The notes under the pieces are model-generated. The model made no database searches and was not told the origin of the DNA. It worked only from the letters and a program-made list of their open reading frames with translations. The position numbers and the translations under genes are program-made. A DNA stretch of 64,000 nt, from contig WQWV01000001.1 of the NCBI GenBank assembly GCA_009785175.1, positions 60,963-124,962 of the forward strand, in the 5' to 3' direction. The stretch comes from Alphaproteobacteria bacterium (GTDB lineage: Bacteria > Pseudomonadota > Alphaproteobacteria > Rs-D84 > CACZYB01). Below, piece after piece: positions 2-64,000 of this stretch; the first letter of the stretch is position 1; the number at the start of each line of letters is the position of its first letter.

Positions 2-3000
2 CGCAATGACCCATCGGTCCGCCAACTTCAAAGGACCGGCGACCCCTTCCGCTGTATCTTCAACTCTTCGGTGGCAAGAACCGGCTTCTTCCCAGCGCTT
101 AACAACGAATGCGAAGATTCGGCGCTTACCCCTTCGGCCCAACTTCTTTGCAGACAGTTCAACGGAATAGTCGCTGTAGGCGGGACTACGGACGCAAGCG
201 GCACGACCACCGGCGCAACCCAGCGGAACGTTCTCGGCGCGCTTTTCAACAACACGACCGGAACCAACAACATAGTCAACCAAGCCACCGCGGTCGCAGG
301 CGCATGCCCGTTCAACATGGCAGCCCAGCTTAACGCCGATCGCATAAATTTCGGCCGATCGCAGCCCGAGCTTAGGAACCCTATTCAGGGAACCGGCGCG
401 GATTCTAGGCACTCCTGCACCTGCACCATAGTCCGAGTAAGCACCGGCGGCATAGTTGCGCCTGATACGGATACCTCGCACGCGAATAACCGCGGCAACA
501 GGTTTGCCTGTCAACCGGGTTCCGAACGCCTGATGATGGGCGTGCGCGCCGGCACCCGCGAGTTCAGGAACAAGGACGCGAACTACCTCTATCTCGGCTA
601 TAACTACTTCTGCGGCATAACCGAGAACGTGGACGAATACGGAATCACGATGAACGATTGCATAATTGCCCAGAATGCGCTTGCCTCGCGCGCGCCGTTC
701 GCGACCAAAGCCTCGACCCAATACTTCCTCGAGGCTGCGTTCAGAATGGAGAACGGCGAATCAAGGGACGGCATTCCCTTCAGGATTTTGAACTTCCAGG
801 ATTCCGCGCTCTATCGCAATAAAATCAGCCGCATGGGCCTCGACACGCTCGAGAAATATCTAGTAAGAAACGAGGACGTTAACGACCTTAGGCGCGAACT
901 TGGCATCACGCCCGATGAAATGGACCAGTTCTTCAGCGTCTCTGTCCCCGTGCCAAGCAACTTCGTTCGCGTCAACGGCGCAGGACTCTTGAACGAGGGA
1001 ACCCGCCTCTGTCTTTCCGGAAGCCGCCTGTCCCCCACCGACCAGGCCAAGTTCGGCGATGCTAATTCCCAGAAATTGCAGCAGGCGTTGCGCGTGCTCC
1101 AGCGTTGCACGAAGCCCTCGAACAACGACACTCAAACCGCGCCCGGTCTAGCACATGACAACAACATAGCGCTCCAGTCTCAGCAGGGCGAGCACGACAA
1201 CCCGATAACCCTTGCCTATCAGATGTTCTACCTCGCCGGTATCGAACCTCATGTTGGCCAAGGCGCACGCACATCGGCCAACAACGACGGCCGGAACGCA
1301 GCCAATTCGGTGGTCGGCGACTTCCATAGTGTCGTCCGTTCGTGCCAAGCCTACGAGTCCAACCTTGCTGCTGCACGCGGTGCGGCTTACGCAAGAATGG
1401 TGGACTTCTTTAATAACTTCCTCGAGGAGAACTTGGCGAAGTTGATAAGAGGTTCGACAAGGAACGTCCGCACAATCGCGACGGAGTTTGCGGGGCTAAG
1501 GACACTTGATTCCGAGCTGCAACAAGTCGAAGCCGCCGCCACAACGGCAAACTTGGAAATGCGCAACCAGCTTAGGACGCAGATGGCGACCGCGCATGCC
1601 ACGGCGATCCTTCGCGAGTGCACCAAAATGCTCCGCACCTGGGAAATCGATGTCGGCAACATGTATACGCTGTTCAACGACTTGAACGTGATCGTTCGCA
1701 TAGATAATTCTACCGTCCATCCCCAGTGGATACACGAAACAACCGAGATATCTCAGCTTGACGACGCCACCACGAGCATTCCCGACAACGGAGCCCAGAC
1801 AATAGCTCTTGGGTTCAGACCGATCTCCAAAACCATGATGTTCGAGAACAATAAAATCCCGGCCGTTTCGCCGCGCCGATGGACTCCTGCGGTCGAAGGC
1901 GATCTGCTTGGCTATGCGGAAATCCCGAACGCGGCCAACAGAAACGTCATGGAACATTACTACGTTCTTCGCTCGGCGGACGAAACCAACCACCTTGTAA
2001 AAATCGACAGGGTTGATGCGGAAAGACGCGTCCTGCGCTTCTCCGACGTGGTCAACTCGTCCGGCTTCGTTGATGTCGCATGCAAGGACGTTGCAGGCTT
2101 CACCTATGACGCTCTCGACCTAACCAAGGTCAAAGCCTGGAGCACCTGCCCCATATTCGAACTCATCGGCGCGACGGCAAGCGGCTTCTTGCCCGAAGGT
2201 ATCTATAGGGTCGGTATCGTAGGTTCCGGCGGCGGCGCTGCTGGACATCGTGGCAAGAATCACGCAACTGCTGGCATGGGCGGATCGGGCGAACTCATAG
2301 TTCGACTTCTGACCTTGACCGGACGGACGGACTTCACGCTTAATATAGGCGACGGCGGCGGCGCGGGCGGCGACAAGGCCCAAGCCGGAAAAGATGGTTC
2401 TTCCACTGTCTTTACCCTCAGCACACAGGGCCGCGTAAGCACCGCCATGATCAACTGGCTAAGAACCAAAGTTCCGACAACCGGCATTACCTCAATGGGT
2501 GGCATGGGCGGACAACCGACAAGGGCCGGGGACGCTCTTACCACCGGTGTCCGGGGACGCCACGGCAACGAAGCTTCTATCATCAACTGGGACAACGAAA
2601 GTGATAGAAATACGAAAATGTGGGGCACTCCTATGTTCAACATGGGCGCAGGCGGTCGACCCGTATCCGGAGAGGCGATAAACTCCATCGACAACCCGAC
2701 TGACGAGCTTATGCGCGGACGCCGCGGCCAACCTGGTGGACTACTTGTCCAATGCCCGTCGACGTCGACTTCTTCGAACAGCGCGAACTTCATACCCGAA
2801 AATCCTATAAGCATGGGCGGCGAAATCGACTGTAAGGCTGTTGCCGAACTTCACAAGTTCGAGCTTGATTGGTTGAAGTCCGATTACAAAAACACCTGCG
2901 GCTCGCACAAAAACTATGTAAAGGGCGGAAACAACGGCAAGAAGAAAGCATGGGCCAATTCGCTTAGCAAAATCAAATTCTATGCCCAGGTGAACAACGC

Positions 3001-3331
3001 GTTCTGTGCCGATCAGGGCACGCTTCCTGTGCAGCAGCTTGCCGTCTCGTCCGAAAAGTGGAAGGACGTTTCCTCGTGGTTCAAGGGCTGGGCAGGCTTC
3101 GGCTGGACGACCGGTGTTGCAGCTGGTGGATACTTAGCGACATTGGCAATAATAGGTTTTACAAATGCATGGAACCCTATGGGTTGGGTTGCACTTGGTG
3201 GCGCAGCAATTGCCGCTGCAACCATGTGGATAGTCGGTAATTCCGTATACTACTGCGTCCACGCCGGCCTAAGCTGGGACAACGACGGAAATTGGAACGG
3301 AACAATCCTTGACCCGGTTCCAAACCAATAA
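2..3331 (+). CDS. large Gly/Thr/Asn-rich surface or secreted protein, 5'-partial, with a C-terminal Trp/Gly-rich double hydrophobic anchor
   Basis: ORF track gives 71..3331 (GTG at 71), but the frame stays open back to nt 2, so the N-terminus lies outside the window. Gly-rich block GSGGGAAGHRG...NIGDGGGAGGDKAQAG near aa 730-800. The last ~80 aa form two hydrophobic helices. A strong terminator follows. Confidence 0.6.
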   Translation, partial: RNDPSVRQLQRTGDPFRCIFNSSVARTGFFPALNNECEDSALTPSAQLLCRQFNGIVAVGGTTDASGTTTGATQRNVLGALFNNTTGTNNIVNQATAVAGACPFNMAAQLNADRINFGRSQPELRNPIQGTGADSRHSCTCTIVRVSTGGIVAPDTDTSHANNRGNRFACQPGSERLMMGVRAGTREFRNKDANYLYLGYNYFCGITENVDEYGITMNDCIIAQNALASRAPFATKASTQYFLEAAFRMENGESRDGIPFRILNFQDSALYRNKISRMGLDTLEKYLVRNEDVNDLRRELGITPDEMDQFFSVSVPVPSNFVRVNGAGLLNEGTRLCLSGSRLSPTDQAKFGDANSQKLQQALRVLQRCTKPSNNDTQTAPGLAHDNNIALQSQQGEHDNPITLAYQMFYLAGIEPHVGQGARTSANNDGRNAANSVVGDFHSVVRSCQAYESNLAAARGAAYARMVDFFNNFLEENLAKLIRGSTRNVRTIATEFAGLRTLDSELQQVEAAATTANLEMRNQLRTQMATAHATAILRECTKMLRTWEIDVGNMYTLFNDLNVIVRIDNSTVHPQWIHETTEISQLDDATTSIPDNGAQTIALGFRPISKTMMFENNKIPAVSPRRWTPAVEGDLLGYAEIPNAANRNVMEHYYVLRSADETNHLVKIDRVDAERRVLRFSDVVNSSGFVDVACKDVAGFTYDALDLTKVKAWSTCPIFELIGATASGFLPEGIYRVGIVGSGGGAAGHRGKNHATAGMGGSGELIVRLLTLTGRTDFTLNIGDGGGAGGDKAQAGKDGSSTVFTLSTQGRVSTAMINWLRTKVPTTGITSMGGMGGQPTRAGDALTTGVRGRHGNEASIINWDNESDRNTKMWGTPMFNMGAGGRPVSGEAINSIDNPTDELMRGRRGQPGGLLVQCPSTSTSSNSANFIPENPISMGGEIDCKAVAELHKFELDWLKSDYKNTCGSHKNYVKGGNNGKKKAWANSLSKIKFYAQVNNAFCADQGTLPVQQLAVSSEKWKDVSSWFKGWAGFGWTTGVAAGGYLATLAIIGFTNAWNPMGWVALGGAAIAAATMWIVGNSVYYCVHAGLSWDNDGNWNGTILDPVPNQ

Positions 3332-3334
3332 AAC

Positions 3335-3367
3335 CAAAAACTCCCTCGGCATCCCCGGGGGAGTTTT
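3335..3367 (+). terminator. rho-independent terminator (AAAAACTCCC-loop-GGGAGTTTTT)
   Basis: Perfect 10-bp inverted repeat with a 13-nt loop and a T-run, directly after the stop of the large CDS. Confidence 0.8.
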
Positions 3368-3371
3368 TCTA

Positions 3372-3400
3372 TTGCACCTCTGCACTCGGCCTGCTATAAT
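3372..3400 (+). promoter_or_regulatory. sigma70-like promoter TTGCAC-17-TATAAT, probably giving a leaderless ftsE mRNA
   Basis: The -35 TTGCAC is at 3372-3377 and the -10 TATAAT at 3395-3400, with a 17-nt spacer. The ftsE ATG lies at 3407, only 6 nt after the -10. Confidence 0.5.
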
Positions 3401-3406
3401 TTCCGC

Positions 3407-4099
3407 ATGAGCCAAGAGAGAAAAGAGCCCCGGCCCCTTGTCGAATTCGACGACGTGTCTTTCCGCTACTTCGAGCACCAGGAGATTTTGAAAGACGTCA
3501 ATTTCAAACTCCACCGCGGCGAGTTCGTATTCCTTACCGGTCCGTCGGGCGCCGGCAAGACCTCGTTCCTTAACCTCATGCACCTAAACCTTATGCCGAC
3601 TTCGGGCACGGTAAAACTTTTCGGCCGAAATATCGAGCGGCTAACCCCCAAGGACTCCGCCGCCGCGCGCCGCAAAATCGGCGCCGTGTTCCAGGATTTT
3701 CGCCTGCTCCCGCACCTCACCGTCCTTGAAAACATAGCGCTTCCATTAAGAATCTCCGGCAAATCCGATCGATACATCGCGACGCACGTCCCCGAGCTTG
3801 TCGAATGGGTGGGTTTGAAAAACAGAATGCAAAGCCTCCCGGACACGCTCTCCGGCGGCGAGAAACAGCGCGTCGCCATCGCCCGCGCAGTAATCGGGAA
3901 TCCAGACCTTATCATCGCGGACGAACCCACCGGCTCGGTCGACGACGAAATGGCCGGCAAGCTCTTATACCTTTTCAAAGAGCTCAACAAGATGGGCACG
4001 GCGGTCATCATCGCCACGCACTCCAAACTGCTTCCGGCACAGTTCGGATACCCTGTATATAGCCTGGGCGGCGGCATTATGACCAAGGTGGGCGCATGA
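3407..4099 (+). CDS. ftsE: cell division ATP-binding protein FtsE
   Basis: Walker A GPSGAGKTS, ABC signature LSGGEKQR, Walker B IIADEPT. Translationally coupled to the downstream ftsX. Confidence 0.9.
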   Translation: MSQERKEPRPLVEFDDVSFRYFEHQEILKDVNFKLHRGEFVFLTGPSGAGKTSFLNLMHLNLMPTSGTVKLFGRNIERLTPKDSAAARRKIGAVFQDFRLLPHLTVLENIALPLRISGKSDRYIATHVPELVEWVGLKNRMQSLPDTLSGGEKQRVAIARAVIGNPDLIIADEPTGSVDDEMAGKLLYLFKELNKMGTAVIIATHSKLLPAQFGYPVYSLGGGIMTKVGA

Positions 4100-13419: not shown

Positions 13420-13474
13420 ACTCCAAGAAAGTAAATTTTGACGAAAAATCAACCCTATGGGGGGGGGTAGCTCA

Positions 13475-19163: not shown

Positions 19164-19709
19164 TCATAGTTTATTTATGAATTTGAACACAGGGGTAATC
19201 CACCCCTGCCGCGGCGACAACTGTCCCGATTCTTTGAGTTTGATTATGTCGGTATAGGAAAGCCACGCTACGCCGTCGACCTCGGCATCGTTGAAACAAA
19301 GGTTCTTTATGTCGATGTTTTTCACAATTACGAAAAGATCGTACCAGTGCTTTTCCACCTTGTCCCCGGGCATGATGTCTTCGCGGAAAGAGGTAAGGAA
19401 ACGGAAGTCCTTGGCTTGTATTTTACGCTCGATTTGAAATCCGATTTCCTCGTTCATCTCGCGCATGACGGTTGTGATCGAATCCTCGCCGGCGGATACA
19501 TGCGCGGCAAGCGATATGTCCCAGACGCCGGGAAACACACGCTTGGACGCGCTCCTACGCTGCATGAGTATCTTGTTTTCGGAGTTGACTATCGCCACTA
19601 CCCCCCCCCGGTGCAAAAGGCCTTTTTCATGCGCCTCGTCGCGCGAAACTATGCGACCGTCCGGAACACCGTAGTCGTCCAAAACCTCGATCATTTCAGA
19701 TTCATACAT
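19164..19709 (-). CDS. Nudix hydrolase
   Basis: Nudix box AGEDSITTVMREMNEEIGF. Contains a G9 tract (plus-strand C9 at 19601-19609) encoding RGGV. Confidence 0.8.
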   Translation of the reverse strand: MYESEMIEVLDDYGVPDGRIVSRDEAHEKGLLHRGGVVAIVNSENKILMQRRSASKRVFPGVWDISLAAHVSAGEDSITTVMREMNEEIGFQIERKIQAKDFRFLTSFREDIMPGDKVEKHWYDLFVIVKNIDIKNLCFNDAEVDGVAWLSYTDIIKLKESGQLSPRQGWITPVFKFINKL

Positions 19710-25317: not shown

Positions 25318-27144
<1,827 letters not shown>

Positions 27145-27152
27145 TTATCGGG

Positions 27153-28120
27153 CTATCTTAAGATAAACGTTTCCCCTTCATCGGCGATTTTTTCACCATC
27201 ATGATAGCATGCTTTTCTAACTCCGGTCGCACTCAATATCCGAATGACACCATGGCTAGCGAAAGTGGAGTCCTCGCATTTTATGACTTCATTTTTACGG
27301 AAATGATGGCCGGCAAGCAACCCATAGGGCATCTTATACGGCTCGGTAAACGTCCCCCATACTTCCCCTTCCTTTTTACCGAAGGTGGCGTCTTTGTTAT
27401 AACAGAGCTTTTCAACTCCGGGAATCGGGTCGCCGAAAGTCGCATTGTTGCATGTTATCGAACCGGGCCCTACTGTTTTCCAATTCGCTTTTCCATATAC
27501 TATGCCTACGACATGGTTGGGGTCGCCGCCTACTCTTACTTCCCTATGATTGCCCGCCGGAACAGGCGCAGCCACCCTCGCTTCTACATACGACGCACGC
27601 CGGGAGGACGTACCGGCGCCTTCATCTTCAACGTCTGCCAGTGCCACTCGCCGCCGCCGCGCTTGACCTTCGGCTTCTACTATCCTCAGGTTATTAAACA
27701 GCTCCTGCTCCAACTCGTTATACTTTCCCTCAAGCGCGTTAAGCCAACCTTCGATGCCGGCAAGCCTTCCCTCCAACTCCGGCGGTACGGAGGGTGTCTG
27801 CGGCATGTTCGCGATTTGCGATTTAAGCGCCGAGATTTCGGATTCAAGCGCGGTTATGCGTTGATTCGCCCCGCCGCCCTGCTGACTGGTTTCGCGGGTT
27901 CCTTGGCCATGATTGGTCTTGCGAACCTTTCTGCCGGAGTTGCCGGCCTTGGCATTCGACGTCCTCTGATTGCCGGCATTGGTTCTTCCGCCGGAATTGC
28001 CTGCCTTACGCCGCTGCTGCTGTGCGAATAAATCCTCGGCCATTAATGAAAGCAAAAGAAACGCTATAAGGAGAAGTTTACCCCCCCCCGCACAAATCGC
28101 ATATTTTTGTTGAAAAGCAT
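27153..28120 (-). CDS. phase-variable secreted coiled-coil / Cys-module protein, paralog 1 (phase OFF: frameshift at the G9 tract)
   Basis: The downstream frame (ORF track 27153..28055, TTG start) encodes ...GGGKLLLIAFLLLSLMAEDLFAQQ. The upstream ATG at 28120 (ribosome-binding site GGGAG) reads MLFNKNMRFVRGGV and stops. One extra G in the tract at 28081-28089 would fuse the two frames. Confidence 0.6.
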
Positions 28121-36507: not shown

Positions 36508-37329
36508 ATGCTTGAAAAAATTTTAGAATTCATGAAATCCGCCGGCGAGATCGCGATGAATAATTATGGTCGCACGGATAACTCGGAATTCAAGTCCGAA
36601 GAAGCGCACGATTTGATAACAATCACCGACCGTGCGATCTCCGACCTTTTTCAAAAATTCATAGCCGATAACTTCTCCGATCTCGACTATTGCATAGTCG
36701 ACGAAGAAAGCATGGACAAACTGACCGTGGGGGGGGGTAGTCCGTTCGATGAAATCGCGAAACACGAATGGGCGTTCGTCCTTGACCCGATAGACGGCAC
36801 AGTCGGTTATGCGCTTGAAATCCCCATGTTCGGAATTTCTCTTGGCGTGCTTAAAAACGGCAAGCCCTATTGCGGAGCCATATACGCCCCGGCGCTTGGC
36901 GAGCTTGTCTATTGCGATACCGAACAGGCGTTCTGGATTAAAAACAATACCAAAATCGAACTTAAACCCTCAGAGCTGGGCAAACTTCCCATAATATTCA
37001 GCCTTGGCCGATATGTGCGCCAAAGCGACAATTACGAACCCCGATATCTTCAAGCCGGTTATAACAGCATGACCACGCACTTTCTTTACATGGCGACCGG
37101 CCGCGGTCGGTGCAACTATTTCAAGTGGCATATATGGGACATGGGCGGCGCCTGGGCGATAATGAAATTCCTCGGATTCGAGTTCATGGATTTCAAGACC
37201 GGCAAAATCTTGGAAAATCTTTCAGCCGACAAATTCAATGACAAATTGAAAATCAAGAATGTGCATATCGTCTGCAAACCCGCCGATTTCGAATTTTTCA
37301 AAGGCATAGCCGAGGAAACGGGAATATAA
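36508..37329 (+). CDS. inositol monophosphatase (SuhB/CysQ) family protein
   Basis: DPIDGT motif. An in-frame G9 tract at 36729-36737 encodes VGGGS. Confidence 0.75.
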   Translation: MLEKILEFMKSAGEIAMNNYGRTDNSEFKSEEAHDLITITDRAISDLFQKFIADNFSDLDYCIVDEESMDKLTVGGGSPFDEIAKHEWAFVLDPIDGTVGYALEIPMFGISLGVLKNGKPYCGAIYAPALGELVYCDTEQAFWIKNNTKIELKPSELGKLPIIFSLGRYVRQSDNYEPRYLQAGYNSMTTHFLYMATGRGRCNYFKWHIWDMGGAWAIMKFLGFEFMDFKTGKILENLSADKFNDKLKIKNVHIVCKPADFEFFKGIAEETGI

Positions 37330-40967: not shown

Positions 40968-41552
40968 CTACTTCAATTTCAAGTATTGCTCGTTCTTTAT
41001 ACGCCTCTGCATACACTCGGGCAACGCGGGCACGCCGCGGAATGCAAACCCCCTGCCCCTTTTTGGCGCAAGCATAAGGTAATCTGTCTCCGATTTATCG
41101 GGCGTTTCATAAAGGACTTCCACGATTTCCGGCACATGCTCTATGGTGCGAAAACCCGCGAAAAGAGAATCGTTCACTCCCACAAACCCACAGCCCTCGT
41201 TTTCATGCAAAAATTTATGTATATCGACGCCCGCCTCTAACAACTTGCCCGAAACCTCGAACGGCATGGCAAAGGCCTCGTCTATCGCGGCGACGACATC
41301 GGGGCTTCCGGGATCGATTCCACCCATAACCTTCGAACCCACGTTTTCCATGACTATGCAGCTGATAAGGAATAGCTCCATGGACTTATCGTTTTTACCC
41401 CCCCCCAAGTGGTCGGCCATAACGGTCAATATCTGGGCATAGCTGTCATGTTTAAGGCCGTGTTGAAGATCGCGCAAAGACGAAAAAACCCGCCTAGCCG
41501 TGCGAAGATAGTCGGCCTTCATCTCTGTAAATATTTCAGTATTATTTTTCAT
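40968..41552 (-). CDS. hypothetical cytoplasmic protein containing an in-frame G9 tract
   Basis: 194-aa ORF. Plus-strand C9 at 41398-41406 encodes LGGGK. Confidence 0.5.
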   Translation of the reverse strand: MKNNTEIFTEMKADYLRTARRVFSSLRDLQHGLKHDSYAQILTVMADHLGGGKNDKSMELFLISCIVMENVGSKVMGGIDPGSPDVVAAIDEAFAMPFEVSGKLLEAGVDIHKFLHENEGCGFVGVNDSLFAGFRTIEHVPEIVEVLYETPDKSETDYLMLAPKRGRGFAFRGVPALPECMQRRIKNEQYLKLK

Positions 41553-43118: not shown

Positions 43119-43877
43119 TCAAAATACATATCTCAAGCCCAAAAGAACTTCCTCGGATATCATATCATATTTTATTTCCGAAACCGAGTTGGCATAGGCG
43201 CCCCCGCCCAACACTTCGGCCATGCCGCGCGCAGTCAAATCTACCTGGCCAAGATTGTTATATCGGTATCCAAAGTCGAGTATGAAGCTCTGGCTTACTA
43301 CGAACGCTATGCCTCCGCCTATGTTGTATGCGAAATTCCTTATTGTCTCGGAATCATCCATAAAATATTCCGTATCATTTACCAAGTCGACCGAAGACCA
43401 CGCTACATGGCTTTTGATTTTGGCAAATCCCACGCCTGTTCCTAGATATGGCCTGAACCTTCGGGTAAGCGGCATGTCGTAATAACCGTTAAGAAACCAT
43501 GTCGAGGTCTTGACCCTCAACTTTACCGGATTGCCGTCGTATGCAGGATTTGAAGTAGCCATATCTGCGTGTTTACCGGGACCGAAACCGTATTCCGCCT
43601 CTATGCGCAAAATACCCCTTGTGGAACGCGAGAAGCTCTGGAAACCTACGGCGACATTTCCGCGCACGGAATCAAGCCATTCGTTTCCTATGATTGTTGA
43701 ATCCGGTGTAAGAAGAAATAGATTCGGCGCGGCGCCTTGGCTTGGTGTATAGTCGGTAATTTCTGTATCTCCGATTTTTATATCGGCCCACGATACCTTA
43801 CCGCTTATATATATTTCGGCCGATGCCTGAAAAGCAGGCACCATCGCAAGCACAAAGGCCAGTATTATTCTAAGCAT
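43119..43877 (-). CDS. outer-membrane beta-barrel protein (OmpA-like / Omp25-type surface antigen family)
   Basis: Signal peptide; amphipathic strands; terminal LRYVF. Confidence 0.6.
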   Translation of the reverse strand: MLRIILAFVLAMVPAFQASAEIYISGKVSWADIKIGDTEITDYTPSQGAAPNLFLLTPDSTIIGNEWLDSVRGNVAVGFQSFSRSTRGILRIEAEYGFGPGKHADMATSNPAYDGNPVKLRVKTSTWFLNGYYDMPLTRRFRPYLGTGVGFAKIKSHVAWSSVDLVNDTEYFMDDSETIRNFAYNIGGGIAFVVSQSFILDFGYRYNNLGQVDLTARGMAEVLGGGAYANSVSEIKYDMISEEVLLGLRYVF

Positions 43878-44079: not shown

Positions 44080-46125
44080 CTAGAAGCCATCCAAATTGAC
44101 CGCTTCCTCCTCGTCATCGCTGATGCGTAGCATTATGTCGCGGGCAAGGTATACTTGGATTCGCGTGCCGGCGGGAACGGTGAAAGGCTTGCGCTGGCGA
44201 AGCGATTGATGGATCATCTTTTGCGCCATGGCTTTCCAATTCTGCTGGATTTCCATCTTCATTTTGTCGCGCGGGGTCATGTTGAAGAAAGCGGTCTCGG
44301 CCATATCCGGATTCCATGTTGCCACCCCGGTAAGCTCGTCCCCGAACACTTCATCCTCAAAGACCGCGCCGCCAAGCGTAGCCCACTGCCCGTCCGTCAC
44401 CCTCTGTGTGACCGCGAATTGGGACGAGGTGGGGAACAGCGCCTCCATCGCGACCGGCAAAGCGCTATAAAGAAGCGGCCGCATGAAGAAGCTCTTCATG
44501 TATTCTGGATCGACGCGCCCCGGCACTCCGTCGCGTCCCTGCGCATCCGTGGTCGAGGTTTCGGGACCGGTGCCGTCGATGGTATTGCCGGCAAGCTTGA
44601 ACTCGGCGCCGTCGGGACGGATAAGACGTTCCCAGCCAAGCTGGACGCGCACGATTGTTTCAAGCGGGTTGTCGAGAGCTATGTTCGGCGGTTCGGCGAA
44701 ACCGATAAGCTGGCTTCCGGCGGGAACCACGATGGTGCGCCCGTCGCCGCCGTATACGTTTCTCTCGACGGTGGCCAAAGCCATAAGCTGGTCTGGCGCC
44801 GTTCCGTCGACAAGCTGGCTGACGTATATGGGCCTGACAAGCACGGCTGGTATGGGCTTGCCCTGACGCAGCACAAAGCGCTCGTCCTTGGGGTTCGAGG
44901 ACACATAATCCTTGGAGTCGATTGTAAATGGCACAAGCCCCTTCTGTCCGCGGCCGCGTATACCAAGCGGATCGGGCAGGCGGTGGCAGTCGTCCTCGTC
45001 TTCGCACGGACGGCCCACACCGCCCTCTTTGGCGATCATGCGATTGTTGATGACGTCGTCTATATTGGGGTTGAAGTTGTTTGCGTTGCGAGCATTCAAT
45101 ACTTCGTCGAGTATAGGAAGCACGAGGTTGATGCGGCGATCATGCGCCTTGGCCTGGTCATGCACGATACCCTTGCCTATGATCTGACCGGTGCGGGACG
45201 CGATGACCATGCCGTCGTCCTGAAGCGTGCCGATGACCTGGCGACAGTTGGGAGAGTATACGTTGCGGTTGCCCTGTGCCCATCCGATGAACACGCCCGA
45301 GAAATCGTAAACCTTGCTTGCGAAATTGCGACAGCTCATGCCCTGCGCGATTGCGTCCGAAATCTGGGGTTCCGGCGCGGCGACCTGGGCTGACCGCACG
45401 GGCTGAGGAGTCGGCACAGGCTGGGACTCCCACGAAGGCTCGGCAAAATCCTCGAATTCGTTTTCCTCCTCGAAAGGATTAAACGCGGGTGGCGCAGGAG
45501 GAGCCGCAGGAGCCGGCGCGGTAAATGAGACTTCGACGGGTATAGAGAGCGTCATGCTTGCGGCGTCGGTCTCGTCCTCGGGCACATATTGAACCTCCAC
45601 GCTAAACGATCGGCTAAGGGTTTCATAGGGCACGAAGGAAACGGTGATGCTGCACCGATTGAAAAGGTCTATGCCGTCAAGCTCGACACAGTCGTTGCCG
45701 ATGGATACGCCGTCGACCGACTGGCTTGCGAAGACATTCATCACGCGGACTGCGCGCTCCATTCCCGAGATTTGGATCTGATCTAGCACCGCCTCGCCGG
45801 TATTGCTTCCCCAAAGCGATATGCGCGAGGGTGTGGCGGATAGAAGCGCCGTGGCGGCGGCTGGCACGGAAACTGCGGCGGGCGCTCCGGCTTCTTCTGA
45901 TACGGATTCGGCAACGGCAAAGGGATTTGTGTTCTTTGTCTTCTCCTCGCCGCCGAACATTACGACTCCGGCGATGAATACGCCAAGCATAGCGAAGGAC
46001 ACAAGCATCAGCACGCGGCCTGATCTGGCCTCGCCGGCACGGATGTCGCTCTGCATCGCGGGCGCGACTGCGCTTGCGTTCGGCGCCGCTTCCTGATTAT
46101 GAGCTTTCCTTCTTATCCCGAACAT
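44080..46125 (-). CDS. virB10: type IV secretion system VirB10/TrbI family protein (long form, Pro-rich linker)
   Basis: N-terminal cytoplasmic segment plus TM; Pro-rich region APAAPPAPPAF; C-terminal TrbI-like domain (IVVPAGSQLIGFAE...). Confidence 0.8.
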   Translation of the reverse strand: MFGIRRKAHNQEAAPNASAVAPAMQSDIRAGEARSGRVLMLVSFAMLGVFIAGVVMFGGEEKTKNTNPFAVAESVSEEAGAPAAVSVPAAATALLSATPSRISLWGSNTGEAVLDQIQISGMERAVRVMNVFASQSVDGVSIGNDCVELDGIDLFNRCSITVSFVPYETLSRSFSVEVQYVPEDETDAASMTLSIPVEVSFTAPAPAAPPAPPAFNPFEEENEFEDFAEPSWESQPVPTPQPVRSAQVAAPEPQISDAIAQGMSCRNFASKVYDFSGVFIGWAQGNRNVYSPNCRQVIGTLQDDGMVIASRTGQIIGKGIVHDQAKAHDRRINLVLPILDEVLNARNANNFNPNIDDVINNRMIAKEGGVGRPCEDEDDCHRLPDPLGIRGRGQKGLVPFTIDSKDYVSSNPKDERFVLRQGKPIPAVLVRPIYVSQLVDGTAPDQLMALATVERNVYGGDGRTIVVPAGSQLIGFAEPPNIALDNPLETIVRVQLGWERLIRPDGAEFKLAGNTIDGTGPETSTTDAQGRDGVPGRVDPEYMKSFFMRPLLYSALPVAMEALFPTSSQFAVTQRVTDGQWATLGGAVFEDEVFGDELTGVATWNPDMAETAFFNMTPRDKMKMEIQQNWKAMAQKMIHQSLRQRKPFTVPAGTRIQVYLARDIMLRISDDEEEAVNLDGF

Positions 46126-46135
46126 CTGCCGCCTT

Positions 46136-47590
46136 TTATTGTGTGCGAACTATGTTGCATGATTGGCCGTGGCGCGATAGCGACTGGCATATCTCGTTCG
46201 CTTTTTCGATTCTCTCGAACGGACCTATGCGAAGGCGATAGAACTCGCCTCCGTAATAACGCTGCTGCCCAAGCTCGTCGACGCCGCTTGTTTCCACGCT
46301 ATAGAACGGAGTGAACTCGTCCATGAACGGCAAACGTTCGGTAAGGGTCAGCCATAACCCCTCGAGCTCGCTAACGGAACGCCCGCGGAAGATTTCGATT
46401 GAAAGCGCACCGTTGTTTTGACGCACAAGCGGCACGAAGTGATTCGAATGCCGCGGTGCAGGGCATGTGGGACACGCTGCCTGAGGAGCGATCGGAGCCA
46501 TCGCGAATCCGGGTATAGGCTGGCTGAATTGGGTCCACTGTCCGCCCTGGACACCGCCGCCGAAGCCGCCGTTAAATCCGCCGCCAACAGCGATGCTGCC
46601 GCGACCGGGCGCATTTCCGGCCACGCTTGCCACCGCAATCATATCCATCGGTGGCGGAGGGTTGGAAAGCAAATAAGGTTTCGAGCGCAGCTTGATGCAA
46701 ACCAAACGTCCGCCCGAGCGAAGCACCAAATCGCCGATAGCTTCGACGACCAAAAGGCGCGACTGCGGCCCCTCGGTCCTGAATCCCACGGGCGATTCGC
46801 CGTCTTCGACAAGCAACGACACGACCGGCCGCTGATTCATGTTAAGCGCCTTCTCTCCGAAATCGATATAGGTGAAGACCTGGTCGCGCCATACGCGTTC
46901 CGGCGCGATTACGAAATCGTCTGGGTTGGGGATGAAGATGTCAAGGTCGAAACGGAATTCCGTAGGGTCGACGGGAACCGATTTGATCCAACCGAAGTCC
47001 TCGCCTTCCCATGTCGGGTCTGATACGCCGCCGCCGAAGCTCCTGCCTCCCATGACCGATCGCATTCCCATGAACGAGCCGTCCGCGCCCCCGCCTGCCG
47101 AAGCTCCTCCGCGTGCGCCGCGCGCGAAACGGGCTGGCACGTTGACATCTACGATGGACGATGTGATTCTATCGGTCGTGAATGGTTCCGAACGCAAATA
47201 GAAAACATACTTGTTTCCGCTCTGCCCGAATATGAAAAGGTTTGTATCGGCCATCGAGCGTCCGTCGACCGGCGAAATCATGAATACGTTTTTCTCGACC
47301 GGTCGCCCCTCGAAGAAGTCCCTATCGCCGACGTATGCGTCCCTGATGGTTTCCCACTCCGGAAAGTTGATGACGGTAAGCATTCCGTCCCTAAGCCTAA
47401 GCGGTATGACCGCGCCTGGTTCCCAGTTTACGCGTTCGAATCCGGGCTTGGTCTGGTTTTCGCCCATATTCTGAAGCGGGTGGTCCCACGCGGTCTGTGT
47501 TCCGAAACCTGCTCCGGGCACCATTTCCTGCGCGGATACGACAAACGGAAATGCTACGGTCGCAAGCAATAAGCTAATCGTTTTTTTCAT
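46136..47590 (-). CDS. virB9: VirB9/CagX/TrbG family protein with Gly-rich inserts and a C-terminal SPOR-like domain
   Basis: VirB9 N-domain (VINFPEWETIRDAYVGDRDFF...NLFIFGQSGNKYVFYLR) and C-domain (FVIAPE...VCIKLRS). The tail QRYYGGEFYRLRIGPFERIEKANEICQSL resembles SPOR. Confidence 0.75.
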   Translation of the reverse strand: MKKTISLLLATVAFPFVVSAQEMVPGAGFGTQTAWDHPLQNMGENQTKPGFERVNWEPGAVIPLRLRDGMLTVINFPEWETIRDAYVGDRDFFEGRPVEKNVFMISPVDGRSMADTNLFIFGQSGNKYVFYLRSEPFTTDRITSSIVDVNVPARFARGARGGASAGGGADGSFMGMRSVMGGRSFGGGVSDPTWEGEDFGWIKSVPVDPTEFRFDLDIFIPNPDDFVIAPERVWRDQVFTYIDFGEKALNMNQRPVVSLLVEDGESPVGFRTEGPQSRLLVVEAIGDLVLRSGGRLVCIKLRSKPYLLSNPPPPMDMIAVASVAGNAPGRGSIAVGGGFNGGFGGGVQGGQWTQFSQPIPGFAMAPIAPQAACPTCPAPRHSNHFVPLVRQNNGALSIEIFRGRSVSELEGLWLTLTERLPFMDEFTPFYSVETSGVDELGQQRYYGGEFYRLRIGPFERIEKANEICQSLSRHGQSCNIVRTQ

Positions 47591-47796
47591 GTAATCTCTC
47601 CACCTTCCGATTTGACTTCCTTTTTAAGGAATTTGCAAGCGTTTTTTGTAAAACCCAATAAAAAAACCAAGCCCTCTCAAATCGCGCGAGGAACAAGGTT
47701 TTAAGGGAAGTTTTGAGGGAGTGGACTTTATCGCCTCCATGACCGAAAGACTTGCCCGCGAAAACCTCCGCTCGTTCGTGCGTATTTCAGGGGGCG
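47591..47796. repeat. intergenic modular repeats upstream of virB9 (modules CCTCAAATCGnGCGAG, GGTTTTAAGGG, GCGTATTTCAGRGG)
   Basis: Modules are shared with 48433-48618 and partly with 58325-58420. Confidence 0.6.
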
Positions 47797-48432
47797 TTAT
47801 ATGGCGCGATAGGAGACAACACGGAAACCAAGGGGATTGCGCCAGGCCTGCTCGCCGGTGCGCTGCTGCTCGCCCTGCTCGAATTCGACCTTGATTTCTA
47901 TGGTCTTGCTGATGGTCTTGGTTTCCTCGGAATTAAGGCTTGTGGCCTCGATGTTTACGGGCACCTCGAATATTTCGCGATTTGGCATAAAGCGTATTTT
48001 CGGGACATCAACGGTGGCTATCATTTTTATGTCGCCGCGCGGCCTGATTCTGGCCTGGAACTCGCTCGAGCTTGCAAACTCTTCCCATGCCTCCGGCGCA
48101 GTCTGAAGCCTAAGGTCGCTTGCCCGACCGAAAAGCACTCGCGCCATTTCCCGCTCGGGGATAAGGGATTCGCGCGTCTCGACGTAATTTATGATCATGT
48201 TGCGCGCTATTGTGTTGCCAAGCTGTCCTGGGGCAAGCGTGCGCGGCGCGCGTATGACGCTCACCGTATCGGCGCTCGTATTCCCCTCGACAAGGAAAGC
48301 TTCGTATTTCACACCCGGCTGGATGCGCTCGTATGCGAAAACAAGGATGATAAGAGCGATCGCCACCAAAAAGAAAAAGAATCCGTGGGTTCTTAGAATC
48401 CAAAGATACCTGCGCTCGTCGACCGACCTCAT
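47797..48432 (-). CDS. virB8: type IV secretion system VirB8 family protein
   Basis: Short cytoplasmic N-terminus, one TM helix (FFFFLVAIALIILVFAY), periplasmic NTF2-like domain. Start at 48432 has ribosome-binding site GGAGGG; alternative ATG at 48495. Confidence 0.7.
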   Translation of the reverse strand: MRSVDERRYLWILRTHGFFFFLVAIALIILVFAYERIQPGVKYEAFLVEGNTSADTVSVIRAPRTLAPGQLGNTIARNMIINYVETRESLIPEREMARVLFGRASDLRLQTAPEAWEEFASSSEFQARIRPRGDIKMIATVDVPKIRFMPNREIFEVPVNIEATSLNSEETKTISKTIEIKVEFEQGEQQRTGEQAWRNPLGFRVVSYRAI

Positions 48433-48618
48433 TGAAAAACCCCCTCCTATGGCAATCATAAATCGCCGTGCCAAGGTTTGCAAGGAAAAAAGCATAAACC
48501 CCTCAAATCGTGCGAGAAGCAAGCGTATAAGAAAAATCCCTTGGGAGTGTATACTGACATACATGACCAAGGGATTTATTCGAAATAGGCGCCGCTAATC
48601 GCGCGTATTTCAGAGGTT
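48433..48618. repeat. intergenic modular repeats upstream of virB8
   Basis: Same three modules as 47591-47796, in a different order, plus GACCAAGGGATTTAT, which is shared with 58326-58340. Confidence 0.6.
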
Positions 48619-49653
48619 TTAAGGGTTAAAGACGAAAGTATGTCCGCCGTCCGTAATATGCACCCCGTTTACATAACACCTATCGCCACGACCTCTTGCC
48701 GGATCGCCGAATGTGGCGTCGTCGCAAGAAATCGTAGAATGCCTTGCGAATCCTCTTTTCCTAAGCGATTGGCCGTAAAGCACGAATCCGTCGGCCGGCA
48801 CGGTGAATGCCTCGCCTTGTGTGGCTATGTGTTCGCCATGCCTTGTAAAGCATATCTTTCTCTTGCCGTCGTTTTGGGAATTCCTTATCGGATCGTCGAC
48901 ACCAAGGTTTTGCTCCTGGCATATCATGGCCGAACCGGGCGTATGCGTGCTATGGCGAAGCGGACCGTATACGACCCATGTATCAAGCGCGGCCTGAGCG
49001 TGTCTTTGTGCCTCTTCCTGCTCTTGCATGAATTCGTTTACCCTTTGGGTCGAGGCGGCCGATTCACCTACGCTTGCCTTTGTGGCAAAAGCGGCGTTCG
49101 CATGCTTCTTGATTTCTATACCACGGTTGGCGAAGTCCTCAAGCATAGGATCATCCCAACCCGAAGGCTTCCTAAGATATCTGTTATCAAGCCCGGCTAC
49201 ATCGGTCTTAAGCTTGCTGACATCCGCCTGAACCGACGCGAACTGAGCGGCGTTCACGCTTGTTCCGGTGGTGGTGGCAAGGGTCGTGCGCCAGGTCTCA
49301 AGCGCGCCGATCCTTGAATCAAGCGACGTGGTCGAGGCGGCCCTGGCCTCGCCTTCGGTGGTTGAGGTGCCAAGCAGAGCCTCAAGCTGCTTCTTAAGTT
49401 CTGCGACTTCGGATTCTAGCGTCTGTATTCTCTCAGCAGCCCTCGAGGTGCCGCCGGTATTTGTAGTCGTGGCGCGCGGCTGCCTGCCCTGCTCTTTCCT
49501 ATTGGCCGAACCTCTGGCTGTGGTGCCGCCAGCCTTGCGGTGCCGCTGCTGTGCGGCAAGGTCTTCGCCCATAACCGAAAGTGCGAGGAACGCAATGAAG
49601 AAAAGCTTCACTCCCCCCCCCCACGAGAATTTTGTTTTTACGTCAAATAACAT
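48619..49653 (-). CDS. phase-variable secreted coiled-coil / Cys-module protein, paralog 2 (phase ON: G10 tract in signal-peptide codons)
   Basis: MLFDVKTKFSWGGGVKLFFIAFLALSVMGEDLAAQQ. Plus-strand C10 at 49613-49622. Ribosome-binding site AGGAGA. Central coiled coil; C-terminal CxnC...TFGDP modules; contains an RGD tripeptide. Confidence 0.75.
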   Translation of the reverse strand: MLFDVKTKFSWGGGVKLFFIAFLALSVMGEDLAAQQRHRKAGGTTARGSANRKEQGRQPRATTTNTGGTSRAAERIQTLESEVAELKKQLEALLGTSTTEGEARAASTTSLDSRIGALETWRTTLATTTGTSVNAAQFASVQADVSKLKTDVAGLDNRYLRKPSGWDDPMLEDFANRGIEIKKHANAAFATKASVGESAASTQRVNEFMQEQEEAQRHAQAALDTWVVYGPLRHSTHTPGSAMICQEQNLGVDDPIRNSQNDGKRKICFTRHGEHIATQGEAFTVPADGFVLYGQSLRKRGFARHSTISCDDATFGDPARGRGDRCYVNGVHITDGGHTFVFNP

Positions 49654-49679
49654 GCTAGAATCTCCTGTTTCCGCATATC

Positions 49680-49708
49680 ATTATACATTATTTCCCATAG
49701 TTAAGCAA
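49680..49708 (-). promoter_or_regulatory. sigma70-like promoter TTGCTT-17-TATAAT for paralog 2
   Basis: Minus-strand -35 at 49703-49708 and -10 at 49680-49685. Confidence 0.45.
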
Positions 49709-61339: not shown

Positions 61340-61873
61340 CTACCAATTCCTACAAAGCGCCCGAACCCGTTGCGATTCGGCGGGCGTATCTATCGCGGCA
61401 TTTTCTCGCTCAAGCTCGGCCTTCATAAGGTTGTGTATATTACTTATGTTTTGGCTCTTCTCGATTTCCCGGCGAATCTCCGCTATGTTCCTATTAAGGC
61501 GATATTGCAAAATCACAAGCTCCTCTTCGAACAGCTGGGCGTATCGCCTGAGCACTCGCGAATAAGCTTCTACATGCTTCGCCTCGTGATCGACTATGGC
61601 ATAGAATTCACAACTCCCGCGCCTGAACTTGTCGTGAACATGGATCTTGACCGACGAATAACCGACATTGAAGGCGACCGAGCCCGGGCAATCCCCTTCG
61701 TCCACGAAAATATTGAAATCGACGACCGTGCGGCCAAGATGGTTTTCCATTATGGTGGCATCGGTCATAACAATCGCGGGCTCGTATGTGATAAGCCTGA
61801 ACTCGACGGGCTCGCACTCGAAGGCCTGCGCTCCGAACGCGAATAGCAGAAGAAAGAGCTTAAATAGAATCAA
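61340..61873 (-). CDS. secreted DUF922-like putative zinc metalloprotease (HEAKH)
   Basis: Signal peptide; HExxH motif AIVDHEAKHVE. Confidence 0.5.
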   Translation of the reverse strand: MILFKLFLLLFAFGAQAFECEPVEFRLITYEPAIVMTDATIMENHLGRTVVDFNIFVDEGDCPGSVAFNVGYSSVKIHVHDKFRRGSCEFYAIVDHEAKHVEAYSRVLRRYAQLFEEELVILQYRLNRNIAEIRREIEKSQNISNIHNLMKAELERENAAIDTPAESQRVRALCRNW

Positions 61874-64000
61874 GATAAGGCTCCACGAACTTGGCCCCGT
61901 ATTGACGCCTCAATTCCTCGGCAAGCAACACTGCCTTGCGTCCCGAGTCGAACAGGCCGAGATAAGGCCCAAGCCCGCTCATGTCTACGTTCAAAATCAC
62001 GGATTCCCCAATAGCGGGCTTTCTAAACAAGATGGCATACTTCAAATTCTTATAGATTTTGCCCTGTATAAACGCGAACTCCTTGGGCGTAAGATTCCAG
62101 TTGGCATAGTCTTCTTGACGCGCCTGCGCGTTCCTAAAGAATATATGGGTTTGGCACTGCCCGCGCATAAGCTCGCCTATGCCAAGCTTGTCGACGATGT
62201 TGGGCTGCTGGAATGCGGCCAGATACGCCTGGCGCTTCTTACGCCCTTCCTGAAGCCCTATGATAAAGTTGCGGCGGAATTCCGAATTGGCCAACAACGG
62301 CGCCGTTTCGTCGATTATGATAAGCGACGGCGAACCCGTGCGCCCGGTTAAATTCTGAATCCGGTTCATAAGATAGGAAACCACCGCGGGCGCAAGCGTT
62401 TCGTCCTCTATCAAATACGTAAAATCGAACGTGGTGAAGTTCGAGCTTAAATCAAGTGTATCGTCGACCGAGTTGAAGATTTCGCCGTATTGGTTCTCGT
62501 CGACCCATCGGAACATCTCGCGCCGCATTCTGCCGGCCGGCGAGAAGCAGGATTTGTAAAGGTTCTTGATTGTGCGCTTGGATGGCTCGAGATAGTCGAA
62601 CGCAACGCCCACGGCGCGCGCTATCTCCGCCTCTGATGCCGCATCGTTTACAAGCGTTATTTCCTTTAACCAGCGTCGTAAAAACGCCCGGTTTTCCGCA
62701 TTGTCCTCGATACGGAAAGGATTAAGCCGCACGGTGGTTCCGGCCTTGATGGCCTCCTTGTCCTTGGTGTCGCCCTCGAAATTGATATAATCGCCCCCGG
62801 CGGCGTATGTGAATATTTCCGCGCCGCGATGCCTGTCGAAAAAGAACACCTTCAAGTCGTCTATTTTCATGCTCTGGCCCGCTAAAAACGAATAGAGCGT
62901 CGTCTTGCCCTGTCCGGTGGGTCCGATTGCAATGGTGTGAGCTACCGCGTTGGGTTCTTCCGATATATGGAATTGGAATTGATAGGCCGTGCCCTGATAC
63001 GTGGGGAAGATTACGATTGGCGTGTCGCCCCAGTCGGATTTCGAAAGGCCTTCTGGCTGCCGCTCAAAGTTAAACAACGTCGCCGCAGCGCGGGAAAGCA
63101 GTTTGTATGTGCGCGGCGATTGGTCATAACTTGGGAACTGCGTGAACCAAGTGATTTCCGCAACCCAGCCCTCGCGTATCGGCACCACGCCGTAAAGGCG
63201 GCAGATCTTCTCGACCTCGAACACGGCGGCGTCAAGCCCGGCCTCGGTATCGGATAATACAAAGAACGTTTCGCTGAAGTTCACAAGCGTCTGGTGGTCT
63301 TCATCACCTTGTTCGATATATGATAGCGCGTCGTCGTATTGGCGCAAAACGTCAAGCGAGAAGGTGGTAGACGCAGCCATTCTCCGTTGGTTCAACAACA
63401 ACATCTGCGCCTGAATTTTCGAAATCGTGAAGATATTGAAAAGCACCGTCAACTCGTAATTCAAGGCCAACACGTCGGCCAACATCTGCTCGTCCGCCTG
63501 CCCGCTTTGTTGTTTTATGCCTATGACGGCCATGAACTTTTCCTTGCCCCCGCTTCTAAATCGGATATAGCCTTTGTTCGAGAAGAAAACTTCGTCGCTG
63601 ACAAGCAAATCCGACACGTTTCCGCTAAGGCCGCCCTGCCCTTGAACGGGATTCGGACGCGATACCTGGTTGATCACGTGCGAGAAGAACGCAAGCGGCG
63701 ACTCGCTTGCCCCCTCGCGCAAAAGCTGGACTTTGTAATCGGACAACATTGCCTCGAGATTGGAGGACGCCAACTCCAAATCGGTATAGGCGTTTTTTCG
63801 CGCGCCGACCGATAATACTACGTAATGCGAGTTCGTGAACACCTCGCTCTGCGCCTCGTTCCACTTCTTGCCGATTTCGGCCATGTATTTGTTCTTGGGC
63901 TCAAGCACGCTGCGGTTTTTGACCTTCTCGCGCAAAGTGAATATGCGGCATTCCGCGGCGATCTCGCTCAACGAGTCTATCCATTTTTTACGCGATTCCA
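61860..64000 (-). CDS. virB4: type IV secretion ATPase VirB4, N-terminus beyond the window edge
   Basis: Walker A IGPTGQGKTT, Walker B LIIIDE, CagE/TrbE/VirB4 C-terminal regions. The frame stays open through nt 64000. Confidence 0.85.
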   Translation of the reverse strand, partial: ESRKKWIDSLSEIAAECRIFTLREKVKNRSVLEPKNKYMAEIGKKWNEAQSEVFTNSHYVVLSVGARKNAYTDLELASSNLEAMLSDYKVQLLREGASESPLAFFSHVINQVSRPNPVQGQGGLSGNVSDLLVSDEVFFSNKGYIRFRSGGKEKFMAVIGIKQQSGQADEQMLADVLALNYELTVLFNIFTISKIQAQMLLLNQRRMAASTTFSLDVLRQYDDALSYIEQGDEDHQTLVNFSETFFVLSDTEAGLDAAVFEVEKICRLYGVVPIREGWVAEITWFTQFPSYDQSPRTYKLLSRAAATLFNFERQPEGLSKSDWGDTPIVIFPTYQGTAYQFQFHISEEPNAVAHTIAIGPTGQGKTTLYSFLAGQSMKIDDLKVFFFDRHRGAEIFTYAAGGDYINFEGDTKDKEAIKAGTTVRLNPFRIEDNAENRAFLRRWLKEITLVNDAASEAEIARAVGVAFDYLEPSKRTIKNLYKSCFSPAGRMRREMFRWVDENQYGEIFNSVDDTLDLSSNFTTFDFTYLIEDETLAPAVVSYLMNRIQNLTGRTGSPSLIIIDETAPLLANSEFRRNFIIGLQEGRKKRQAYLAAFQQPNIVDKLGIGELMRGQCQTHIFFRNAQARQEDYANWNLTPKEFAFIQGKIYKNLKYAILFRKPAIGESVILNVDMSGLGPYLGLFDSGRKAVLLAEELRRQYGAKFVEPYLDSI

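Follow-up and report, generated by a model that had tools for sequence, protein, structure and literature searches.

Within a 64,000-nt stretch of contig WQWV01000001.1 (hereafter the window) lies a gene, here called P2, whose predicted signal peptide is encoded across an uninterrupted run of ten G residues. The P2 product is 100% identical to FWD15_00600 (P0001), a hypothetical protein of the metagenome-assembled genome (MAG) "Alphaproteobacteria bacterium", beyond which a word-indexed search of 5.8 billion proteins returned no match. A paralog, P1, is located elsewhere in the window and contains nine G residues at the corresponding place. The elements of the two genes are as follows:

49703..49708, minus strand: −35-like hexamer TTGCTT
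49680..49685, minus strand: −10 hexamer TATAAT, 17 nt past the −35-like hexamer
49662..49666, minus strand: Shine-Dalgarno sequence AGGAG, 8 nt 5' of the ATG; the P1 equivalent, GGAGA, has the same place
48619..49653, minus strand: P2 open reading frame (ORF), ATG at 49653, stop codon at 48619, 344 amino acids (aa)
49552..49653, minus strand: predicted Sec signal peptide, residues 1–34, from the pattern of hydropathy and charge, with cleavage likely after L-A-A
49613..49622, minus strand: G10 tract, codons 11–15, the proposed slipped-strand switch
49444..49551, minus strand: basic low-complexity linker, residues 35–70, for which AlphaFold gives no secondary structure at 38–67
49372..49443, minus strand: heptad-patterned helix RAAERIQTLESEVAELKKQLEALL, residues 71–94, opening a helical region that reaches approximately residue 223
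48799..48981, minus strand: module A, residues 225–285, Cys245/Cys268, with a decayed FGDP half (LGVDDP plus a 5-aa insert)
48628..48789, minus strand: module B, residues 289–342, Cys310/Cys326, with a canonical CxxATFGDP
48682..48690, minus strand: RGD tripeptide, residues 322–324 of module B, its Asp at the nearly invariant Lys site of the family (G-x-x-K-x-C-Y)
48531..48581, minus strand: terminator-like hairpin and, after it, the U-run UUUUUCUU, in the interval from the P2 stop codon to virB8
27153..28120, minus strand: P1, paralog of P2, out of frame at G9, with an intact 300-codon ORF downstream
28081..28089, minus strand: G9 tract of P1; in both ORFs the tract begins at nucleotide +32

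The G10 tract of P2 is read as TGG GGG GGG GGA GTG, encoding W11-G-G-G-V15 in the n-region of the signal peptide, and both its position within the ORF and its length agree with the threshold of at least nine G by which contingency genes are recognized. The second hallmark of such genes, that a one-unit change in length toggles between a full product and an early stop, is also seen in silico, with identical logic in the two paralogs. A full-length P2 protein (343–345 aa) is obtained from G7, G10, and G13 only, while other lengths, such as G8, G9, G11, and G12, yield 14–51 aa; across both paralogs, G7, G10, and G13 again give the full protein and the remaining lengths give peptides of 13–51 aa. 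The ATG frame of P1 stops after 18 codons at G9 and opens to 322 codons with G10. The two genes have diverged considerably (tblastn E=1e-12 with 27% identity; 35% by global alignment), and the P1 tract of nine G is also present in the ENA contig L030. The 300 open codons of P1 past the frameshift point to an OFF state that can be reversed more than to a pseudogene in decay, and from the sequence the two genes appear to form a family in which P2 is in frame (ON) and P1 out of frame (OFF). The initial annotation had likewise described P2 as an ON-phase paralog with WGGGV in its signal peptide, and the ORF, the tract, and the hydropathy profile, together with the P1 frame, agree with it.

That ribosomes would read through the tract from the ATG at 49653, as had been proposed, is supported by the comparison of the paralogs. 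Both proteins start with M-L-F and continue after the tract with K-L-x-x-I-A-F-L-x-L-S-x-M-x-E-D-L-x-A-Q-Q, and the L2, F3, and F9 codons are conserved between P1 and P2 and differ only synonymously, on both sides of the tract, which argues that translation passes through it. The start at the upstream ATG itself is supported by the conserved AGGAG/GGAGA, by these synonymous codons, and by P1, which offers no usable start codon beyond the tract, the first candidate being a TTG midway along the hydrophobic core. The same observations bear on a different account, in which translation would begin at a GTG directly after the tract (V15, 49611) to give MKLFFIAFLALSVMG..., and the G run would act as a 5'-leader or Shine-Dalgarno-like element that tunes initiation, not frame. 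The GTG-AAG-CTT that follows the tract would indeed yield a textbook short signal peptide, and a G9 run upstream of the likely start of murI in the window looks Shine-Dalgarno-like. Nevertheless, P1 lacks a comparable start, the upstream ATG, AGGAG, and MLF...F codons are conserved with synonymous changes, and the gap between tract and GTG is 1 nt, too close for a Shine-Dalgarno sequence. We regard this account as extremely improbable.

P2 is also flanked by putative signals for its own transcription. The initial annotation named TTGCTT-17-TATAAT as the promoter; both hexamers are present, but the −35 half matches the consensus at only 3/6 positions and does not reach the threshold of the promoter scanner. 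The pair aligns with TTGTCA-17-TATACT of P1, conserved in position and embedded in a CCCTTG...GGAAATAAnGTATAnT stretch that is likewise conserved. At the other end, the 101-nt 3' region of P2 folds with −34.6 kcal/mol (z = −5.9), and 0/200 shuffles fold equally well. Judged by these elements, P2 appears to be a separately transcribed gene with its own promoter and terminator. No terminator-like fold was found 3' of P1 (z=−0.8); only 27 nt separate its stop codon from the ATP-synthase beta-type gene that lies downstream (25693–27153, minus strand), with epsilon and a-subunit genes next in L030.

Long G/C runs are over-represented in the window. A pattern of at least nine G/C matched 7 times, at 6 loci, where 0.81 matches would be expected, and 0/100 dinucleotide-preserving shuffles reached this count. 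Run lengths are bimodal, with 41 runs of five, one of six, none of 7–8, five of nine, and one of ten. GGG accounts for only 14% of Gly codons in 23 window genes, and the other Gly-Gly-Gly tripeptides in window genes are coded by interrupted, GGC-rich codons. The bimodal lengths and the rarity of GGG set the tracts apart as a distinct class of sequence, comparable to the poly-G phasomes known from Neisseria. Besides the tracts of P2 (49613–49622, minus strand) and P1 (28081–28089, minus strand), the window holds four others:

19601..19609, minus strand: in-frame G9 in a Nudix hydrolase gene (19164–19709)
36729..36737, plus strand: in-frame G9 in an inositol-monophosphatase (IMPase)-family gene (36508–37329)
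41398..41406, minus strand: in-frame G9 in a 194-aa ORF without a family (40968–41552)
13459..13467, plus strand: G9 near murI (Asp/Glu racemase), 7 nt upstream of the likely start ATG at 13475

At 6/6 tracts the local gene has the G's on its sense strand, and TA(A/G) directly follows 5/6, so that one of the shifted frames meets a stop codon there. The tract upstream of murI looks Shine-Dalgarno-type and less like a frame switch, with a tract-fused upstream ATG in frame (MGGGSSMKIG...). A 7.3-kb extension of the contig on the right flank contains no tract.

The P2 protein begins with MLFDVKTKFSWGGGVKLFFIAFLALSVMGEDLAAQQ, comprising a Lys-containing n-region (K6, K8, K16), a 12-residue hydrophobic core, LFFIAFLALSVM, with a Kyte-Doolittle 11-mer maximum of 2.85, and a c-region L-A-A|QQ, with no lipobox Cys; canonical signal peptides are carried by other members of the module family described below. 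The basic low-complexity segment and the coiled coil that had been proposed to follow are both recovered, the former at residues 35–70, with 9 R/K versus 2 D/E in residues 35–74, and the latter with a predicted 3-4-3-4-3 heptad a/d spacing at I76/L79/V83/L86/L90/L93 that is conserved in the P1 counterpart, RITALESEISALKSQI. AlphaFold places helices at residues 14–37, 68–95, 100–128, 135–158, 169–192, and 199–223, all with a low predicted local distance difference test (pLDDT) score. Kinship of the helical part to phage tail fibres was considered and dropped, as it had no match in PHROGs.

The remainder of P2 contains its four Cys residues (245, 268, 310, 326). AlphaFold modeling of residues 221–344 from a 105-sequence alignment gives an all-beta structure with a pLDDT of 83 and a predicted template modeling (pTM) score of 0.75. 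A DsbA gene is also present within the window. The initial annotation saw two module types here, in opposite order in the paralogs, and proposed module shuffling. This picture did not hold: all four Cys-Cys segments, two per paralog, are mutually similar (z 4.4–11.4 versus shuffles) and represent a single module of ~58 aa with the pattern V-Y-G ... C-x-N-A-T-F-G-D-P-x-x-G-x-x-K-x-C-Y-x-x-G-x-x-I-A-x-E-G-x-x-F, arranged in tandem in both proteins, which align colinearly. The first copy of P2 has lost its FGDP half and the second has a weaker tail, with the reverse in P1, so that the decay of a different half in each copy mimics a swap in order. Colinear pairings total 125 and swapped pairings 123, scores that do not favor shuffling, which was rejected given the homology of all segments. 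The RGD reported inside a module does exist in module B, but it is expected 0.14 times from the composition of P2, is found neither in P1 nor in the aligned homologues, and accordingly lacks the conservation and the excess over chance that an integrin-binding RGD adhesin would show.

A census of Genome Taxonomy Database (GTDB) genomes with the full-length alignment found no relative. For the module, HMMER, run exhaustively over 1.84 billion representative proteins, returned 43 at E 1e-3 or better, a 12-sequence profile of the module found 124 proteins, and C25, C48, C90, and C106 are invariant in the 105 sequences. P2 fits this family by profile, by Cys pair, and by its YG, FGDP, and G-x-x-K-x-C-Y motifs, departing from it in the FGDP of module A and the Lys of module B. 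The members fall into two groups. The first consists of small exported two- or three-module proteins from Rickettsiales MAGs, Brucella/Ochrobactrum, Mesorhizobium, Rhizobium, and Polyangia; the second consists of multi-repeat fusions to a glycoside hydrolase family 19 (GH19) chitinase, a trypsin-like protease, a metalloprotease-like domain (weak Pfam hit), kelch repeats, or a chitin-binding domain. Neither Pfam nor NCBIfam, both checked, holds a model for the family. The C-terminal module belongs to a family of extracellular accessory modules that is widespread yet lacks annotation, and it is this family that is new here; with no family model and no solved structure, the module lends itself to domain annotation and structural study.

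Structural comparisons of the module were less informative. Foldseek searches with the 221–344 model gave no significant match in the PDB (best E=0.28) or in BFVD (best E=0.24), and beta-sandwich carbohydrate-binding modules (e.g., 8xmz, 8zqf, CBM4-2) are among the nearest known comparisons. The module resembles SUEL/L-rhamnose-binding lectins (Gal_Lectin) in an N-x-x-F-G-D-P-x-x-G-x-x-K that follows a YG(R/K)-type motif and in its Cys-rich tandem repeats, and the sole PDB sequence match is such a SUEL lectin (5h4s), at a non-significant E=0.21. Homology to this group, suggested by the YGR and DPC motifs, found no backing in Pfam or fold searches and is left unproven.

The closest proteins of the module family come from the "Rickettsiales bacterium" MAGs LBL52 and LBL46, and several of the LBL52 genes carry G tracts of their own. 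Two of these tracts are noncoding and fill a putative promoter spacer. At the gene for P0022 (LBL52; L002 9943–9973), TTGACT-tcccat-G9-TAAAAT leads into a Shine-Dalgarno sequence and the ATG, with a spacer of 15 nt as assembled; upstream of the gene for P0003 (LBL52; L004 9907–9932), a terminator hairpin comes first and TTGACA-aatcat-G8-TAGAAT after it, with a spacer of 14 nt as assembled. The 20-kb LBL52 locus that contains the P0003 gene also includes three paralogous exported-protein genes with ATGAACAAAAAnnGTAC-G9-CAAATAA (L004 2818–2826, 3530–3538, 7921–7929). Their tracts are in the signal-peptide-coding region; the G9 puts all three genes out of frame, and G8 or G11 would restore the frame and give MNKxxTGG.NKYLA..LLLIS... 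signal peptides. More distant gut MAG loci with virB9, 232 kb in all, have no G run of at least nine. The tracts of these relatives strengthen the case that P2 may be switched.

The anatomy of P2, its frame logic, the statistics of the tracts, and its family membership are direct observations. We consider it probable, at roughly 60%, that P2 is a poly-G contingency gene encoding an exported, probably ligand-binding protein, and that it is ON here with P1 OFF. Slipped-strand mispairing in G10 would toggle production of the protein, such that one G gained or lost would end translation of P2 after 14–51 codons; under a design shared by both genes, the G10 assembled in P2 would correspond to ON and the G9 in P1 to OFF. 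From its N-terminus onward, the product would have a Sec signal peptide, a disordered linker of basic character, a stalk of ~150 residues that is helical and in part coiled-coil, and, at the C-terminus, a pair of disulfide-bonded beta-modules. Since P2 and P1 would be separately switchable, a population could display neither, either, or both. The most likely role for P2 would be that of a switchable ligand-binding (adhesin- or lectin-like) protein that is displayed on the surface or secreted. It is from the domain partners of the module and the weak fold matches that the binding role is suggested, and it is the switching, the final location, and the binding of P2 that we infer.

Several points weigh against this proposal. 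In-frame G9 tracts also occur in cytoplasmic housekeeping-type genes (Nudix, IMPase-like), so that a tract by itself is no mark of a surface contingency gene. No polymorphism in tract length was seen, as all available strain assemblies are 100% identical, and a metagenome scan for tract-length variants gave 0 matches. The sole difference in length seen is that between the paralogs, G10 in P2 versus G9 in P1, and a look-up of the presumed OFF-variant product returned no record. The LBL46 member P0006, which resembles P2 in architecture with a signal peptide, coil, and two modules, has no tract. With regard to the protein, the signal peptide of P2 was judged by hand from hydropathy and charge, as opposed to a trained predictor, and the full-length AlphaFold model, built from 2 sequences, is poor (pLDDT 42).

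Some of these points would be expected if the G run were an odd way of coding Gly-Gly-Gly that arose from a lineage-specific mutational quirk, with P2 expressed constitutively and P1 a recent pseudogene or a homopolymer assembly error. The in-frame G9 tracts in the Nudix, IMPase-like, and 194-aa ORFs, the one near the murI start, and the lack of length polymorphism in the strain assemblies and the metagenome scan would all fit such a quirk, and the TA(A/G) after 5/6 tracts hints at a sequence-specific origin. A quirk would, however, sit poorly with run lengths that are bimodal with none at 7–8, with the status of GGG as a minor Gly codon, with the identical position of the tract in two paralogs that are just 27–35% identical, and with a P1 ORF that is wholly intact past the tract. 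The tracts of the LBL52 homologues, furthermore, fall in noncoding promoter spacers, and any G9–G10 run is hypermutable in bacteria. We therefore hold this explanation to be unlikely, while giving it some weight, and favor the proposal that P2 is a contingency gene.

Downstream of P2 are virB8, virB9, and virB10 (assigned by Pfam), with the virB8 ATG at 48432, and the initial annotation suggested that P2 could be a surface or secreted protein associated with this type IV secretion system (T4SS). In a more explicit form, P2 would be a T4SS component or substrate, namely a VirB5/CagL-like pilus-tip adhesin that binds a host receptor by its RGD. CagL of Helicobacter pylori is a VirB5-like, RGD-bearing T4SS adhesin, and P2 resembles it in being a predicted exported, partly helical protein encoded beside T4SS genes with an RGD. 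The signal peptide, elongated helical region, and globular end of P2, and its position 186 nt upstream of virB8-virB9-virB10, are also as such an adhesin would have them. The adjacency is real, but the functional link did not survive. No homology was detected between CagL and P2, which has no VirB/Cag family match in Pfam, NCBIfam, or PHROGs, and its RGD is at chance level and unconserved. P2 is followed by a terminator-like hairpin of its own, and a separate promoter-like site serves virB8. Among 19 related virB8-10 loci, taken from termite, ruminant, and human-gut MAGs, 0 have a P2-like gene. In L009, the closest of them by synteny, the order is the isoleucyl-tRNA synthetase (IleRS) gene, orf108, a slot, and virB8-10, and the slot (2387–3935) is occupied by a DNA methyltransferase and a likely restriction endonuclease in place of P2. 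P1 and the genes for the homologues P0003, P0022, and P0006 are likewise not adjacent to T4SS genes. P2 thus shows neither of the features expected of a T4SS component, that is, membership of a VirB/Cag family, and conserved position with co-transcription. A VirB5/CagL-like adhesin was rejected on the family, synteny, and transcription-unit tests; we consider any T4SS role for P2 very unlikely, and its adjacency to virB8 is best read as a probable coincidence in a variable slot.

The T4SS genes of the window have features of their own. They are scattered, with virB4 (61860–63971, minus strand) ~12 kb from virB8-virB9-virB10 (44080–48432, minus strand). The VirB9 protein (CagX domain, 46136–47590, minus strand) carries a C-terminal SPOR peptidoglycan-binding domain, a fused form that is 60–77% conserved in the 19 gut MAG loci, and an outer-membrane beta-barrel gene (43119–43877) follows virB10 at the expected site of virB11. 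Elsewhere in the window, a 1086-aa ORF at 71–3331 on the plus strand has no Pfam match at E 1e-5 or better.

Phase variation by homopolymeric tracts is well documented in Neisseria, Campylobacter, Helicobacter, and Haemophilus; to our knowledge, it is hardly documented in uncultured gut Alphaproteobacteria, and a full-text literature search found no paper on homopolymeric phase variation in Rickettsiales. The proposed switch of P2 is of a known design, that of pilC, in a lineage for which no report was found. In Neisseria, pilC carries a homo-G tract in its signal-peptide region (PMC5354566). The pilC1/pilC2 genes of Neisseria gonorrhoeae and Neisseria meningitidis share with P2 and P1 a poly-G tract in the 5' signal-peptide-coding region, ON/OFF control by frameshifting (proposed for P2 and P1), and the presence of two paralogs that can be in differing phases. 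PilC, conversely, is a ~110-kDa type IV pilus protein with no kinship to P2 in sequence or fold, and P2 belongs to an uncultured gut alphaproteobacterium in which we infer its switching.

Neisseria phasomes have been defined with a working threshold of at least nine G, and show a modal tract length of 9–10 and 15–19 tracts per genome (PMC5953494). The window shares with them a discrete class of tracts of at least nine G that is above chance and found at coding 5' ends and promoters; it is denser, at 6 tracts in 64 kb versus 15–19 per genome, and possibly a biased sample. The phasome of Campylobacter jejuni offers the same likeness, and the window differs from both systems in that several of its tracts are in cytoplasmic housekeeping-type genes and that TA(A/G) follows 5/6. 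Homopolymers that switch genes from within the promoter spacer are known from the poly-G/C of porA and opc in N. meningitidis and the poly-C of fim in Bordetella. It is the LBL52 homologues, not P2, that resemble these, with G8/G9 between TTGAC(A/T) and TA(A/G)AAT; the tract of P2 is coding, and the LBL52 promoters are putative, with spacers of 14–15 nt that are sub-optimal as assembled.

The density of G9–10 tracts is also apparently new, the loci examined being a biased sample. A broader and rather doubtful extension, which we offer tentatively, is that a lineage of uncultured gut Alphaproteobacteria (MAGs labelled Alphaproteobacteria bacterium or Rickettsiales bacterium) runs an unusually dense poly-G phasome, with a tract approximately every 10 kb of the stretches seen, that switches an exported family of proteins built on a disulfide-bonded beta-module of undescribed structure through both signal-peptide tracts (P1, P2, and the three LBL52 genes) and promoter spacers (P0003 and P0022), with P2 as a switchable adhesin. 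If the tracts are hypermutable, the cytoplasmic-type Nudix, IMPase-family, and 194-aa genes would be frameshift-prone as well, and, were the broader idea true, the in-frame tracts of the Nudix and IMPase-like genes would bring metabolism, too, under stochastic switching. Should sequencing reads confirm switching, P2 and P1 would provide a concrete, testable example of it in uncultured gut Alphaproteobacteria and would flag a possibly large phasome in these organisms.

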